Shown: in pieces, positions 37,677 through 43,281 of the stretch | How positions within the stretch are numbered: the first letter of the stretch is position 1 | How the letters are laid out: every line of letters begins with the position of its first letter | Assembly (NCBI GenBank): GCA_037129925.1 | Contig: JBAXTZ010000004.1 | Coordinates: forward strand, 21,444 to 85,443 | DNA length: 64,000 bases | Reading direction: 5' to 3' | Source of the DNA: Bacillota bacterium | GTDB taxonomy: Bacteria > Bacillota > Negativicutes > JBAXTZ01 | Translations under genes and position numbers: made by a program | Notes under the pieces: model-generated | Told to the model about the DNA's origin: nothing | Seen by the model: only the letters and a program-made list of their open reading frames with translations | Databases searched by the model: none

Positions 37677-39791
37677 ATGAACAATGGAAATTTTATTGCC
37701 GGTATGTTGTTATACGCGACGTTGACCGGCATCGAACTCAGCAAGCAGCAAAGTGACCAAATCGCCGCACTAAATCGTACTTGTTTTGATGCGCGCGCTG
37801 TTGCAAAAATTGCCCGTTTAAAAATTAAGCCTTCAAAAACAAAACTATTGAAACAAATCAATAATTTGCCGGTCCTGTTACAGTTTACCAGCGGTGAATG
37901 TCTGCTGGTCACCGAACGCGCCGGTGCAATTTTGCAGGTTTTCGATCCGATAACCGAAAGCCAATATCCAGTTGAACTGATAACGCTTGAACAAAAATTC
38001 AGCGGTGGCTGTTTTCGTTTTACCCGCAGATTTGGCTTGAGCGACATCTTTCGGATGTTCAATCTTAATTTTTTTCTGCGTCCAGTACGAAAATATCACC
38101 TGCGGTTTTGGGAAATAATTACCGCTTCGATTTTTTTGCAACTCATCGCCGCCTTCACGCCACTAGCTACCCAAGTGGTAATTGATAAGGTTATGCCCAA
38201 CCGTGGCTTTTCGACTTTGGCAATAATTGTCGTTCTTTTGTTAATGTTGATGATTTTTCAGAGCCTGCTCAGTTATGTCCGTCAATATATCTATTCACAC
38301 ACTGCGGCAAAGGCTGATTTAATACTTGGCGCGAGTATTTATCGAAAACTGTTAAGTCTGCCATTTACTTACTTTGAAAAACGCCGTACCGGGGATACTG
38401 TGCTACGGATTAATTCGTTATCCGGCGTGCGCGAGTTTCTCACCGGTCCGGCGCTAACCGCGCTTATCGATACTACTTTCGCGATAATTTTTCTAGCTAT
38501 TATCTACTACATATCGCCGCTGCTCACCCTGATAACTTTGATATTCTTTCCGATTCAGGGAATAATCACGTTGCGCTCGATACCGCTACTGCGCCGCAAA
38601 CTTGATAAATACTGGGTAGCCGAAGCAGATATTAACGCTTTCGCGGTCGAAACCATAACCGGTATCCGGGCCGTTAAATCGTTTTCCGGCGAGAAACTAT
38701 TTGCCCGTGGCTGGGAAAAGCTTATTGCGAATGTCGGTTCTAGCGGTTATGAGATGGGCATTTCCTCAGTAGTTCTGGCGAATACCGCAACTTTTGCGCA
38801 AAAACTGGGCGGCATGGCAATACTATGGACCGGCGCGTTGCTCGTAATAACCGGCGACATCAGCGTCGGTCAGCTAGTCGCCGTTCAGATGCTCGCCCAA
38901 TCAGCGGGAAACCCGCTAGCCAATTTGTTTGCGCTCTGGCCACAATTTCAGCAAGCTGCGATTGCAGCCGAGCGCATCGGCGACATTCTCGCTGAGCCTT
39001 CTGAGCAGCCCGGTAAAAGCACTACCCGGTTAACTGGCGGTACAATAGAATTTGAAAATGTTAGTTTCAGCTACGCTGGCAAAGCGCCAATATTCGAAAA
39101 CTTTAACCTGAGTATCGCCAACGGCGAGCGACTGGCAATAATCGGCAAAAGCGGTTCCGGGAAAAGCACCCTGGCAAAACTAATTCAGGGCATCTACCGC
39201 CCGAGTAGCGGAACTATCCGAATTGGCGGTAAAGACATCGAAGATATTCCGCCAGAACTATTGCGGTCACATGCAACCGCTGTATTGCAAGACAACTATA
39301 TCTTTCAGGGAACCGCTATCGAGAACATTGCGCTTTCTGGCAACAAAAAGTTGGAGGAAATCGTTAAATTCGCCGAAATCTCCGGTGCTGATGAGTTCCT
39401 ACGCCAACTGCCGCAAAAATATGCCAGCGTACTGGGCGAACAGGGCGCAAATCTTTCTGGCGGTCAACGACAGCGGTTGGCTATCGCTCGCGCGCTGTTG
39501 CAAAATGGGAAAATAGTAATTTTTGACGAAGCAACAAGCGCACTGGATTCTATCAGCGAAAACCTGTTTGAAGCGAAATTTAACGCCATCTGCGCCGATA
39601 AAACCGCCATAATAATTACTCATCGTTTGAGTTCCGTCAAGGACTGCGACCGGATAATCGTGCTCGATGGCGGGAAAATTGCCGAAAGCGGCAACCATCT
39701 TCAATTATTGAAGCAAAACGGCATATACAAATCACTGCTGGCTGCTACCAAGAGCGGACAGCCAACTGGAGTTGTTCATGAAACTATTTAA
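37677..39791 (+). CDS. Type I secretion ABC transporter, HlyB-like (N-terminal C39-like domain without catalytic Cys + TMD + NBD)
   Basis: 704 aa. Walker A GKSGSGKST, signature LSGGQRQR, Walker B IVIFDEATSALD, H-loop ITHRL. N-terminal approx 130 aa C39-like fold lacking the Cys. Confidence 0.9.
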   Translation: MNNGNFIAGMLLYATLTGIELSKQQSDQIAALNRTCFDARAVAKIARLKIKPSKTKLLKQINNLPVLLQFTSGECLLVTERAGAILQVFDPITESQYPVELITLEQKFSGGCFRFTRRFGLSDIFRMFNLNFFLRPVRKYHLRFWEIITASIFLQLIAAFTPLATQVVIDKVMPNRGFSTLAIIVVLLLMLMIFQSLLSYVRQYIYSHTAAKADLILGASIYRKLLSLPFTYFEKRRTGDTVLRINSLSGVREFLTGPALTALIDTTFAIIFLAIIYYISPLLTLITLIFFPIQGIITLRSIPLLRRKLDKYWVAEADINAFAVETITGIRAVKSFSGEKLFARGWEKLIANVGSSGYEMGISSVVLANTATFAQKLGGMAILWTGALLVITGDISVGQLVAVQMLAQSAGNPLANLFALWPQFQQAAIAAERIGDILAEPSEQPGKSTTRLTGGTIEFENVSFSYAGKAPIFENFNLSIANGERLAIIGKSGSGKSTLAKLIQGIYRPSSGTIRIGGKDIEDIPPELLRSHATAVLQDNYIFQGTAIENIALSGNKKLEEIVKFAEISGADEFLRQLPQKYASVLGEQGANLSGGQRQRLAIARALLQNGKIVIFDEATSALDSISENLFEAKFNAICADKTAIIITHRLSSVKDCDRIIVLDGGKIAESGNHLQLLKQNGIYKSLLAATKSGQPTGVVHETI

Positions 39792-41151: not shown

Positions 41152-43281
41152 GTGGTTATGAAATTTAAGTATGACAGCGGCATTTTTTGCCTGGCAGTCG
41201 CCATGCAAATCCAAAACAAACCAATTGAATATTCGCTACTTAAGCGACAGTTAGCCAAATCTGAACCGGCTGGTTGCGACGATTTGGCGCGCTTGGCGCA
41301 GACCAATGGTTTTGAAACCGGTATCATAACACCCGACAACCTTGCCACATTACCGACACCGTTCGTTCTGGAACTCATTGACGGTAGTTTTTGTATGATC
41401 GCCTATATCGAAAACGCCCGCGCCAAGGTGACCCGATCCGACAATCCGGCGCCGCAGTTTTTGGAAATTGCCGAACTGAATAAAATAGCTAACCGGGCGT
41501 TGTTGCTTAAAAGAGCCTTGCAAACGACTGCCCATGCACAAAAATTTGGTTACGGTTGGTTTTGGAGCGAACTCAAAAAACACGGCAAGACAATTCGTTT
41601 GGTGCTATTCCTAACTTTGCTGGTTCAACTCATCAGTCTGGTTATTCCGTTTATTACGCAAAAAGTCATCGACGATGTCTTAGTACACCGCAGTCGGGAC
41701 ACTTTAAACACTTTGCTATTAGCCGGTTTGGCGGCAATTTCTTTTTCATATCTTTTTGGTCTGTTTCGAACATTGGCTTTTTCTTACGCAGCCGGCGTAA
41801 TCGATGCCGTGCTAGGAGCCAAGTTGTTCGAGCGATTGTTATCCTTACCGCTTAGTTATTTTGAAAAGCGCAATACCGGCGAAATGCTCGCCCGACTTAA
41901 TGAAATTAACCAAATACGGCAATTCCTGTCCGGCTCGTTGATGACGCTGATTTTGGATTTGCTGTTCGTGTTTATCTATATCGCGATTATGATAAAATAT
42001 AGCGGGCTGTTAACCATTCTGGCGCTTGGCGCAGCGTTGTGTTTCGCGATTTTGAGCGCGGCGCTCACACCGATATATTACCGTTTGCAACAAAATTCGT
42101 TTCTGGCCGAAACTGAAAACCAGTCGTTTTTGATTCAAAGCGTCAATGGTATCCAATCAATCAAAGCTGCCAATGCTACCCAAGCTTTTTCCAACAACTT
42201 TGATGAACGCATGAGCAAAGTTTCCCGCGCGGCTTTTAGCGTTGCCAATTTGCGGGGTATTGCCGGAGGCATTGGTCAATTCATTCAACAATTGTTCAAT
42301 ATTTCTTTATTATGGATTGGCGTGAATATGGTTTTGAACGATTCCCTGTCGCTCGGCGAACTAATTGCTTTTCAAATGTTTGCCGGTCTGGTAATCGAAC
42401 CAATTATGCGACTATCGAACATGTGGCAAGCGTTGCAGCGGGCGCGTATCGCGGTCGAGCGGGTCGGCGACATTATGAATGAACCTGCCGAATCACTCGG
42501 GCAATTCGCCGAACTAAGCGTTCGCGGCGACATTGAATTAGCGGCGGTGGATTTTGCCTACGCCGAGCGTCCGATACTGAAATCAGTCAATCTGGTTTTT
42601 GAAGAAAACAAAAAAACTGCGATTGTCGGTCGTAGCGGGTCGGGAAAAAGCACCGTTGCCAAACTCATTCAGAAAGCTTACTTACCCAACCGGGGCAGGA
42701 TTAGCATTGGCAAATATGATTTGGAAGATTTCGACCTTGCCGAATTGCGCCGGGCGGTCGGTCTGGTCACTCAAGAAACCCGGCTCTTTCGCGGCACCAT
42801 TCGCGAAAATATCCTCATGGCAAAACCGGATGCTGATGACGACGAATTGTTAACCGCCTGCCGGTTGGCGGGAGTTTGTGAATTCGTTGAACTGCTCCCG
42901 GAAACCTATGCTACTTTGCTTGGCGAAAATGGTGGCGGCCTATCCGGCGGACAGCGGCAGCGTATCGCCATTGCGCGGACGCTCATCAACAATCCGCGCA
43001 TTTTATTGTTCGATGAGGCAACAGCCGCCCTAGACGCTGAAACCGAGTGCGAAATTACCAAAGCAATCGACGAATTATCCGGCGAGCGCACGATTATTTC
43101 AATTGCACACAGACTAAATGCCATAGCCGATTATGATAAAATCTATGTGCTGGATGATGGCGAAGTGGCACAGTGCGGAACGCACCGCGAACTGCTCGCT
43201 CGCCCGGGCGCCTATCGCGAATTATGGAACGCGCAGAACTATTCACAAAAATTTCTTGCTGCTGACACACTTTCGCCATAG
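41152..43281 (+). CDS. Second HlyB-like ABC transporter with N-terminal C39-like domain (DSG instead of DCG, catalytic Cys replaced by Ser)
   Basis: 709 aa. Walker A GRSGSGKST, signature LSGGQRQR, Walker B LLFDEATAALD, H-loop IAHRL. N-terminus YDSGIFCLAVAMQ aligns to the C39 QxxxxDCGxACLAM motif with a Ser substitution. Confidence 0.9.
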   Translation: MVMKFKYDSGIFCLAVAMQIQNKPIEYSLLKRQLAKSEPAGCDDLARLAQTNGFETGIITPDNLATLPTPFVLELIDGSFCMIAYIENARAKVTRSDNPAPQFLEIAELNKIANRALLLKRALQTTAHAQKFGYGWFWSELKKHGKTIRLVLFLTLLVQLISLVIPFITQKVIDDVLVHRSRDTLNTLLLAGLAAISFSYLFGLFRTLAFSYAAGVIDAVLGAKLFERLLSLPLSYFEKRNTGEMLARLNEINQIRQFLSGSLMTLILDLLFVFIYIAIMIKYSGLLTILALGAALCFAILSAALTPIYYRLQQNSFLAETENQSFLIQSVNGIQSIKAANATQAFSNNFDERMSKVSRAAFSVANLRGIAGGIGQFIQQLFNISLLWIGVNMVLNDSLSLGELIAFQMFAGLVIEPIMRLSNMWQALQRARIAVERVGDIMNEPAESLGQFAELSVRGDIELAAVDFAYAERPILKSVNLVFEENKKTAIVGRSGSGKSTVAKLIQKAYLPNRGRISIGKYDLEDFDLAELRRAVGLVTQETRLFRGTIRENILMAKPDADDDELLTACRLAGVCEFVELLPETYATLLGENGGGLSGGQRQRIAIARTLINNPRILLFDEATAALDAETECEITKAIDELSGERTIISIAHRLNAIADYDKIYVLDDGEVAQCGTHRELLARPGAYRELWNAQNYSQKFLAADTLSP

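Follow-up and report, generated by a model that had tools for sequence, protein, structure and literature searches.

The atypical type I secretion system (T1SS) that exports the MARTX toxins is built from four proteins. It has two ATP-binding cassette (ABC) proteins, RtxB and RtxE, both of which are needed for secretion, and it is conserved across MARTX loci (Linhartova et al. 2010, PMC3034196). The description of the Vibrio RtxB-RtxD-RtxE exporter, with TolC, as an "atypical four-component T1SS" is credited to Boardman & Satchell 2004 where that work is cited (PMC3034196, PMC4316617). Gillespie et al. 2015 (PMC4316617) reported the same layout from several insect endosymbionts and from a plasmid of Rickettsia felis, recovered RtxB and RtxE as separate clades, and noted the proposal that the two act as a heterodimer. 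A locus of this layout lies in a 64,000-nucleotide stretch (the window) of contig JBAXTZ010000004.1 from a Bacillota bacterium. Two HlyB-like ABC exporters, ABC1 and ABC2, flank a HlyD-family adaptor, and a gene for a 283-aa protein lies immediately upstream. Two ABC proteins with one adaptor, degenerate C39-like domains (CLDs) and an unlinked TolC make up a known architecture, not a new one. Within the RtxBDE class, the locus is best placed as a divergent variant of Negativicutes type, and the more unusual part of it is the 283-aa protein because it has no RTX repeats.

The original prediction, made from the letters of the window, described a type I module with two divergent full-length HlyB-like ABC proteins around the adaptor. 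The open reading frames (ORFs) for ABC1, HlyD and ABC2 start and end exactly where it had placed them, and the two ABC proteins are 35% identical across the transmembrane (TMD) and nucleotide-binding (NBD) domains. However, three features that it took to be unusual have precedents. Two ABC genes around one adaptor gene is the published rtxB-rtxD-rtxE layout of the MARTX loci (PMC3034196, PMC4316617). A CLD that lacks the catalytic cysteine is normal for HlyB-type transporters and is their defining trait (PMC8277102). A TolC encoded elsewhere is the commoner case, since the outer-membrane factor (OMF) is encoded apart from the ABC and membrane fusion protein (MFP) genes in 57% of predicted T1SS (PMC4793230).

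The ABC-MFP-ABC order was confirmed in rtxB-rtxD-rtxE of the V. vulnificus plasmid pR99 and in a Proteus mirabilis record, and a single ABC gene was found at the Azospirillum and E. coli plasmid loci. The window locus resembles RtxBDE in gene order, HlyB-type ABC proteins, non-catalytic CLDs, full ATPase motifs and an OMF that is presumably encoded elsewhere. It differs in that the window has no MARTX or RTX toxin gene, no rtxC and no rtxH. Its cargo gene, as proposed below, is co-directional and upstream, whereas MARTX lies in a divergent operon. The proteins are 33-38% identical, orthology is recovered weakly for RtxE and not at all for RtxB, and the host is Negativicutes-like, not proteobacterial. 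The Proteus record (L017, NZ_OL790812.1), which holds an rtxBDE-like ABC-HlyD-ABC locus, is 4.09 Mb long, filed as "plasmid" and almost unannotated; it is evidently a chromosome. On plasmid pRNTEN_2 of the Rickettsia endosymbiont of Nesidiocoris tenuis (L019), the rtxE-like gene 3' of HlyD is interrupted by reverse-transcriptase genes of group II introns. This locus is apparently losing its second pump, and the broken gene was left out of the comparison.

A four-gene cassette consisting of the 283-aa gene, ABC1, the adaptor and ABC2 is present in five lineages: the window, L010/L011, L001 (a locus of a Negativicutes metagenome-assembled genome, MAG), L012 and L003-L005. The surroundings of the cassette vary, with three or more flanking contexts among these lineages. 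Relative to the window, the adaptor is 67-89% identical, where computed, and the 283-aa protein 57-91%. All four genes are under purifying selection. Comparison of the window with L010 gives ratios of non-synonymous to synonymous substitution (dN/dS) of 0.051 and 0.043 for ABC1 and ABC2, 0.026 for the adaptor gene and 0.034 for the 283-aa gene; these values are rough due to saturated dS, though dN is far below dS. Because ABC1, the adaptor and ABC2 are strictly co-conserved and tightly packed in all lineages, they are regarded as one unit.

Both ABC proteins match the Pfam families ABC_membrane (PF00664) and ABC_tran (PF00005). The top NCBIfam model for both is TIGR01846 (HlyB), and the best PDB match for both is HlyB (7sgr/8dck), with E 1e-148 for ABC1 and 3e-139 for ABC2. 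A full-length AlphaFold2 model of ABC1, built from 40 sequences (mean pLDDT 79.9), has an alpha/beta N-terminal domain with pLDDT 73-82. It aligns over 700 columns with HlyB 7sgr_A, with a TM-score of 0.69-0.77 to 7sgr/8dck, and over about 700 columns with PCAT1. As predicted, the ATPase motifs are canonical. All ten ABC proteins of the five lineages retain an intact A-loop, Walker A, Q-loop, LSGGQ, Walker B/D-loop and H-loop. No inactivating lesion was seen in either gene, the motifs being intact and dN/dS 0.04-0.05. Both are apparently functional, divergent exporters of the HlyB-like type, as far as can be read from their sequences. The heterodimeric exporters TM287/288 and TmrAB also consist of two different half-transporters encoded together and are structural neighbours of the ABC1 model core. 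Unlike the window proteins, however, they have one degenerate ATP site, whereas both sites are consensus here, an adaptor gene lies between the two ABC genes and both ABC proteins carry CLDs.

The N-terminal domains of ABC1 and ABC2 cannot be aligned with each other by BLASTP, and neither has a match to Pfam Peptidase_C39 (PF03412). When compared by hhalign with a 25-sequence alignment of the HlyB family, the ABC1 domain matches with a probability of 97.1% (E 7e-11) and the ABC2 domain with one of 99.1% (E 5e-19). In the family alignment the position of the catalytic cysteine is taken by N5 in ABC1 and by S9 in ABC2 ("YDSG"), in line with the claim that the catalytic cysteine is missing from both and that the second has DSG. 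The catalytic histidine, about which no claim had been made, is lost as well (C74 in ABC1, F80 in ABC2). The ABC1 domain does contain cysteines, but none at the catalytic site. Judged by these residues, both N-terminal domains are non-proteolytic CLDs. The E. coli haemolysin exporter HlyB/HlyD/TolC is similar to the window system in that HlyB is the best PDB and NCBIfam match, has the same CLD-TMD-NBD order and works with an adaptor that has an acidic N-terminal cluster. It differs in that HlyB is single and homodimeric, its CLD retains His83, and its substrate is a 110-kDa acylated RTX toxin.

The two CLDs differ in charge. In HlyB, the basic CLD residues K56, K58, K62, R66 and R128 bind the acidic N-terminal cluster of HlyD, as stated in PMC11026475 with reference to Zhao et al. 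The N-terminus of the window adaptor opens with MKLFKQIFSDFFSDDD and includes the acidic cluster SDFFSDDD. In the aligned CLD segment, the first-position ABC proteins (Vibrio and Proteus RtxB, and ABC1 of four lineages) have 6-8 K+R and a net charge of +6 to +8, and the second-position ones (RtxE and ABC2) have 0-3 K+R and a net charge of -3 to +1, the alignment being one of a divergent region. Single HlyB-type proteins average 5.2 K+R and +3.8. The exception among first-position proteins is ABC1 of L003, with a net charge of +1. Thus RtxB/RtxE and ABC1/ABC2 share the same asymmetry: the HlyD-docking basic patch is kept in the first ABC protein and missing from the second. One hypothesis is that docking on the adaptor is left to the ABC1-type CLD alone, the ABC2-type CLD serving another role. 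The asymmetry leads in this way to a testable idea of why two pumps are needed, as they are in MARTX secretion.

The adaptor scores 319 bits with TIGR01843 (cut-off 208.65) and matches Pfam HlyD_3, HlyD_D23 and Biotin_lipoyl_2. A scan of genome contigs with a narrow adaptor alignment returned only two loci, one from the Negativicutes MAG and one from Sporomusa ovata. The census was taken with a broad adaptor alignment on metagenome contigs. It gave 80 loci, 36 of which could be assessed because they had at least 2 kb on each side. Six of the 36 are ABC-MFP-ABC, two are ABC-ABC-MFP and 27 have a single upstream ABC gene; one further locus has an upstream ABC gene that was overlooked by the motif search and detected by tblastn. 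The eight two-ABC loci all belong to the adaptor's nearest relatives, with at least 38% identity; at this level L029 is the only assessable locus with a single ABC gene. At 36% identity or less, every assessable locus has a single ABC gene. Homologs with this type of adaptor are therefore not always accompanied by one ABC protein, as its nearest relatives carry two.

L020, one of the eight two-ABC loci, is the cassette of the Negativicutes MAG. At the remaining seven, RTX proteins are the neighbours. Their ORFs either span about 740-900 aa and contain 9-28 RTX motifs, several of them running to the end of the locus, or are cut off at its edge. These seven loci form a Sporomusa-type clade (L021-L026, L023, L030) with five metagenome loci of the order ABC-MFP-ABC and two of the order ABC-ABC-MFP; this mixture means that the position of the second ABC gene relative to the adaptor gene is not fixed. 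Sporomusa ovata DSM 2662 (L009, 133-10510) has ABC(717)-HlyD(452)-ABC(715) together with two 370-aa RTX proteins, and its adaptor is 40% identical to that of the window. The Sporomusa-type loci are alike to the window in being the nearest adaptor relatives (38-42% identity) and in having two ABC proteins of distinct "first" and "second" clades. They differ in having RTX neighbours (about 370 to 900 aa, 9-28 RTX motifs) where the window has a non-RTX helical protein. In addition, their CLDs score as Pfam Peptidase_C39, whereas those of the window clade fall below threshold and the ABC proteins sit on long branches. Two ABC proteins appear to be the norm in the Sporomusa/Negativicutes-like adaptor clade, and the architecture extends past the Proteobacteria and the insect endosymbionts. 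In several Sporomusa-type loci a large gene (about 950-1120 aa) lies downstream, and these loci also have a gene of about 400 aa whose product starts with MKILFLHPNFPAQF.

Whether the two ABC genes are an ancient pair or a recent duplication, a question raised in the original prediction, was addressed with neighbour-joining trees of the TMD and NBD (a distance method only; 562-565 columns, 200-300 bootstraps), in which long branches occur. ABC1 and ABC2 each form a clade with 100% bootstrap and a long stem, and the two clades are sisters in just 17-22% of replicates. As the clades are separate and rarely sisters, the pair is not a recent duplication; it is old. The ABC1 clade is a weak sister (44%) of the first-position ABC proteins of the Sporomusa-type loci. 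The "first" and "second" ABC proteins of the latter fall into separate clades with 90% and 100% support, so the pair is old in those loci too. A recent duplication in Sporomusa had been suggested by a tree with one Sporomusa pair (72-78%), and this was overturned by denser sampling.

The 283-aa protein belongs to no Pfam or NCBIfam family. Seven homolog clusters were found in 5.8 billion sequences, and a profile search of 1.84 billion representatives added one more real member, P0128. The family has about nine clusters among roughly 15 billion proteins. Two other hits of the profile search, P0129 and P0130, were rejected as repeat or low-complexity false positives. P0128 comes from a 1.4-kb contig on which a terminator is the only feature seen and no ABC gene begins within 325 bp. 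The family has a pI of 4.7-5.0, and seven of eight members are free of cysteine. Its members have no signal peptide, no transmembrane (TM) segment and no RTX motif, and none of the eight matches HemolysinCabind even at E <= 10. No cluster of RTX repeats exists in any frame of the 64-kb window, beyond which such genes may exist, and no RTX protein was found at the five cassette loci with 10-kb flanks.

The best-conserved parts of the family are residues 21-48 (IVTPVLSDNVKDAWNKL...G-V) and the C-terminus, which is an invariant KKWFKW in eight sequences and FKWIKSWW in P0128. The possibility that residues 39-47 (LISDLRGSG) form a double-glycine leader was dismissed, given a variable G45, an invariant pair of [ST]-G and CLDs that lack catalytic residues. 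The AlphaFold model consists of six long helices, and residues 191-225 form a Gly/Ala-rich hydrophobic stretch. The best Foldseek match in the PDB is ClyA, which is not significant (E 0.02, TM 0.25, on a model with pLDDT 54). There is no match to Pfam HlyE; weak Apolipoprotein matches were seen in five of eight members (best E 0.0016). A profile search of the PDB gave nothing significant, the top match being the YopH N-domain at E 0.009.

The 283-aa gene is directly 5' of ABC1 in all five cassette lineages. Orphan paralogs without an adjoining T1SS were found in L014 (1025-1849), L015 (10001-10864) and L016 (179-1033), two of them from the same sample (SRR20705930) as a cassette-bearing contig.

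The region 5' of the 283-aa gene has a distinctive set of repeats. The pattern TGTCAG-N5-TGTCAG occurs only at 36652-36695 in the 64 kb, with three overlapping matches against 0.08 expected. TGTCAGG repeats are kept 5' of this gene in 5/5 cassette lineages, one of them in a different genomic context, and a TATAAT is kept in four of the five aligned upstream regions. Two TGTCAG copies are also found 5' of the orphan paralog L014 (955-971), the sole orphan that keeps the repeats. The TGTCAGG repeats are a putative operator for a DNA-binding regulator. No response regulator or other transcription factor able to bind TGTCAGG was found among the scanned ORFs of the window. In L003, an OmpR-type two-component system lies just 5' of the cassette, and a response regulator and a LytS-type kinase just 3' of it.

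A hairpin between the 283-aa gene and ABC1 has a minimum free energy of -24.2 kcal/mol (z = -3.6), and none of 200 shuffled sequences folds as well. It is found at the same place in 5/5 lineages with differing stem sequences. The shape with a 15-bp stem and a 4-nt loop is shared by L010, L001 and L012, and L003 has an 8-bp stem and a 9-nt loop. Because no strong U-tract follows, it is probably a partial terminator or attenuator, or an mRNA stabilizer, and not a full terminator. In E. coli, too, the substrate gene (here the candidate) is 5' of the ABC gene with a hairpin between them.

Together, these observations make it likely that the locus encodes a T1SS of the RtxB-RtxD-RtxE type in a Negativicutes-like diderm, with the following manner of working, substrate and regulation. 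ABC1 and ABC2 would act jointly as parts of a single machine, the simplest form of which would be an ABC1/ABC2 heterodimer like the one proposed for RtxB/RtxE. Both CLDs would bind the unfolded substrate without cleaving it, and the substrate would be threaded via the adaptor into an unlinked TolC-like channel. The CLD of ABC1, RtxB-like, would keep the basic patch that contacts HlyD; that of ABC2, RtxE-like, would have lost it and may be free to handle cargo. The substrate would be the co-transcribed upstream 283-aa protein, acidic, Cys-free and helical, in place of the RTX cargo of related loci. The promoter would be controlled via the four TGTCAGG repeats. The hairpin past the cargo gene may reduce read-through, so that, as with hlyA/hlyB, more cargo than pump is made. 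Once secreted, the protein may be membrane-active, to judge from its amphipathic helices, Gly/Ala-rich hydrophobic centre and Lys/Trp tail; this is the weak step of the scheme.

Several results weigh against this scheme. Both ABC proteins (594 bits for ABC1, 635 bits for ABC2) score under the curated TIGR01846 cut-off of 725.55. The ABC1 clade groups with RtxB in only 14-22% of bootstraps and the ABC2 clade with RtxE in a weak 56-62%, values too low to fix orthology to RtxB and RtxE. Both ATP sites are consensus, unlike those of classic heterodimeric ABC exporters. No member of the OEP/TolC family is encoded among the 48 window ORFs scanned (the unscanned ones are all under 300 aa), in agreement with the claim that the locus holds no outer-membrane channel gene, so that the outer-membrane step is assumed. 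As for the substrate, the model of the 283-aa protein is of low confidence (pLDDT 54), and three family members are not adjacent to a T1SS. The candidate cargo has no RTX repeats, while the partners reported for CLD transporters are RTX substrates of more than 50 kDa (PMC8277102). Its Lys-rich, helical C-terminus is the opposite of the trend in RTX-type signals, which finish with [FLI][VAI], contain few K/R/E and tend towards beta structure (PMC8861453). With these points counted in, it is still somewhat probable that the 283-aa protein is the secreted cargo.

Other explanations differ from this scheme in the substrate or in the pumps. The 283-aa protein might be an accessory factor, such as a chaperone, regulator or scaffold in the cytoplasm or at the membrane periphery, while the real substrates, possibly RTX proteins, are encoded elsewhere. 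Such a role is doubtful, though there is a good deal to be said for it: both pumps carry CLDs and the protein has no RTX repeats, its C-terminus is unlike RTX-type signals, the related two-ABC loci all adjoin RTX proteins, orphan paralogs exist, and the Lys/Trp amphipathic tail could be an inner-membrane anchor. However, the gene sits immediately 5' of the first ABC gene with an intergenic hairpin, mirroring hlyA-hlyB, and its product is acidic and Cys-free like T1SS substrates. Orphan copies are common among T1SS substrates, and one of the orphans here shares the operator. No RTX protein occurs in the window or the five flanked cassette loci, and both CLDs have diverged strongly, on long branches, exactly in the clade with the 283-aa gene, as expected if substrate specificity changed. 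A substrate role for the 283-aa protein is preferred for this locus.

As for the pumps, ABC1 and ABC2 might both belong to one machine but as homodimers in different positions, for example one dimer translocating and the others structural or regulatory. This is unlikely but fits several facts. The HlyB/D complex entries 7sgr and 8dck each hold six HlyB chains, that is, several HlyB dimers, and the title of the HlyB/D paper calls it "a multi-engine pump containing three ABC transporters". Each paralog has consensus ATP sites and could thus make a competent, symmetric homodimer by itself, and the CLD charge asymmetry would fit different docking positions on the adaptor. Yet nothing in the sequence prefers homodimers to a heterodimer, and the published proposal for RtxB/RtxE is a heterodimer (PMC4316617). 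In fact the sequence evidence would seem to favour neither arrangement, and the heterodimer is adopted by analogy. It is quite improbable that two independent homodimeric exporters share one adaptor, each with its own substrate, e.g., different 283-aa paralogs. The CLD is the main determinant of specificity in HlyB (PMC11026475) and those of ABC1 and ABC2 are too different to align, and several 283-aa paralogs occur in one metagenome sample; however, in the studied systems of this layout the loss of either ABC protein abolishes secretion of a single toxin (PMC3034196), and the three genes are strictly co-conserved and tightly packed, which speaks for one unit. A peptidase-containing peptide exporter, of the PCAT type or the NHLP type with two ABC proteins, that cleaves a double-glycine leader is the most far-fetched of these explanations. 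NHLP systems likewise use two ABC proteins, the N-terminal domain fold and transporter core of PCAT1, ComA and the NHLP exporters are homologous to those of the window, and there is a weaker NCBIfam similarity to TIGR03796, TIGR03797 and TIGR01193. The scores, however, are far under the family cut-offs (TIGR03796, 385 vs 853.3; TIGR03797, 372 vs 709.4; adaptor TIGR03794, 70.5 vs 156.2). There is also no G-[GAS] leader motif in the 283-aa protein, whose conserved site is [ST]-G with a variable G45, and the candidate cargo is far bigger than the PCAT substrates of about 10 kDa (PMC8277102). Because the catalytic Cys and His are missing from both N-terminal domains, and with them the catalytic triad, this reading is effectively refuted.

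If the 283-aa protein is the substrate of the two-ABC exporter, the reported correlation between CLDs and RTX substrates would be broken at this locus. A switch of cargo class can then be suggested, tentatively. In this small clade of Negativicutes, an ancestral RTX substrate may have given way to a 30-kDa non-RTX helical, probably membrane-active protein, and both CLDs may have been remodelled to recognize it, possibly by its conserved N-terminal helix (residues 24-48) and/or the invariant KKWFKW in place of an RTX domain. Such a switch, if true, would be a natural counter-example to the rule that a CLD implies an RTX substrate, and the locus a compact model for the role of each CLD. The substrate would represent a new and very rare family of type I secreted proteins, with terminal motifs and an operator of its own. 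Experiments would also be much easier with a 30-kDa protein and a cassette of four genes than with a MARTX toxin of 500 kDa.

The export operon is compact. Five closely packed ORFs on the + strand (36756-43721) encode the 283-aa protein, ABC1, the adaptor, ABC2 and a small SHOCT protein (Table 1). The likely start of the adaptor has a GGAG Shine-Dalgarno sequence and gives a 14-nt overlap with the 3' end of ABC1. The likely start of ABC2 has a GGTGG Shine-Dalgarno sequence and is 7 nt past the adaptor stop. Of the ABC sizes first given, 704 and 709 aa, the former stands; the latter holds for the GTG start and becomes 707 aa from the likelier ATG. The SHOCT protein (E 7e-8 to SHOCT) has one TM helix and a Gly/Met-rich N-terminus, MQGGGGDMMNGGRQMM. 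Its gene is directly 3' of ABC2 in four of the five lineages (the window, L010, L001 and L012) and not in L003; the protein could be an immunity or accessory factor.

Table 1. Features of the export locus (positions in the window)
Feature	Position	Strand	Remarks
Four direct TGTCAGG repeats, spacing ~11 bp	36652..36695	+	Putative operator
TATAAT, -10-like hexamer just 3' of the repeats	36702..36707	+	Probable operon promoter, as read from sequence
Candidate cargo gene, 283 aa	36756..37607	+	Unannotated family, KKWFKW C-terminus
Hairpin, 15-bp stem and 4-nt loop	37626..37659	+	Between 283-aa gene stop and ABC1 start
ABC1, 704 aa, CLD + 6-TM TMD + NBD	37677..39791	+	HlyB-like, first-position (RtxB-like) paralog
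HlyD-family adaptor	39778..41151 (likely start ATG 39778; start in ORF list TTG 39772)	+	TIGR01843 and Pfam matches
ABC2, 707 aa from ATG 41158 or 709 aa from GTG 41152	41158..43281	+	HlyB-like, RtxE-like position
Small SHOCT-domain membrane protein	43371..43721	+	Possibly last gene of the operon
Terminator-like hairpin, 14 bp, then T-run	43723..43754	+	Likely end of the transcription unit

The neighbours of the cassette are treB/treC, a type I restriction-modification (R-M) system, the SHOCT protein and a major facilitator superfamily (MFS) transporter, and there is no acyltransferase or RTX protein among the neighbouring genes. The window also encodes aromatic amino-acid biosynthesis, CLC and Na+/H+ transporters, an LtaS-like sulfatase and corrinoid/URO-D methyltransferase genes. 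Among named relatives, the Negativicutes MAG is the closest and Sporomusa ovata the next, which makes the diderm host of the original prediction plausible. The R-M island (26241-33399, - strand), with hsdR, hsdS, a YhcG/DUF1016 nuclease-like gene and hsdM, lies between the Na+/H+ exchanger gene and treC. It is absent there in the syntenic MAG locus L001, and L010 has it with a different specificity and accessory genes (RhuM). At 56583-60640, genes for B12-binding, CobW-like, MFS and URO-D-like proteins stand in a row. They resemble a corrinoid-dependent methyltransferase system, as would suit an acetogen or methylotroph of the Sporomusa kind.

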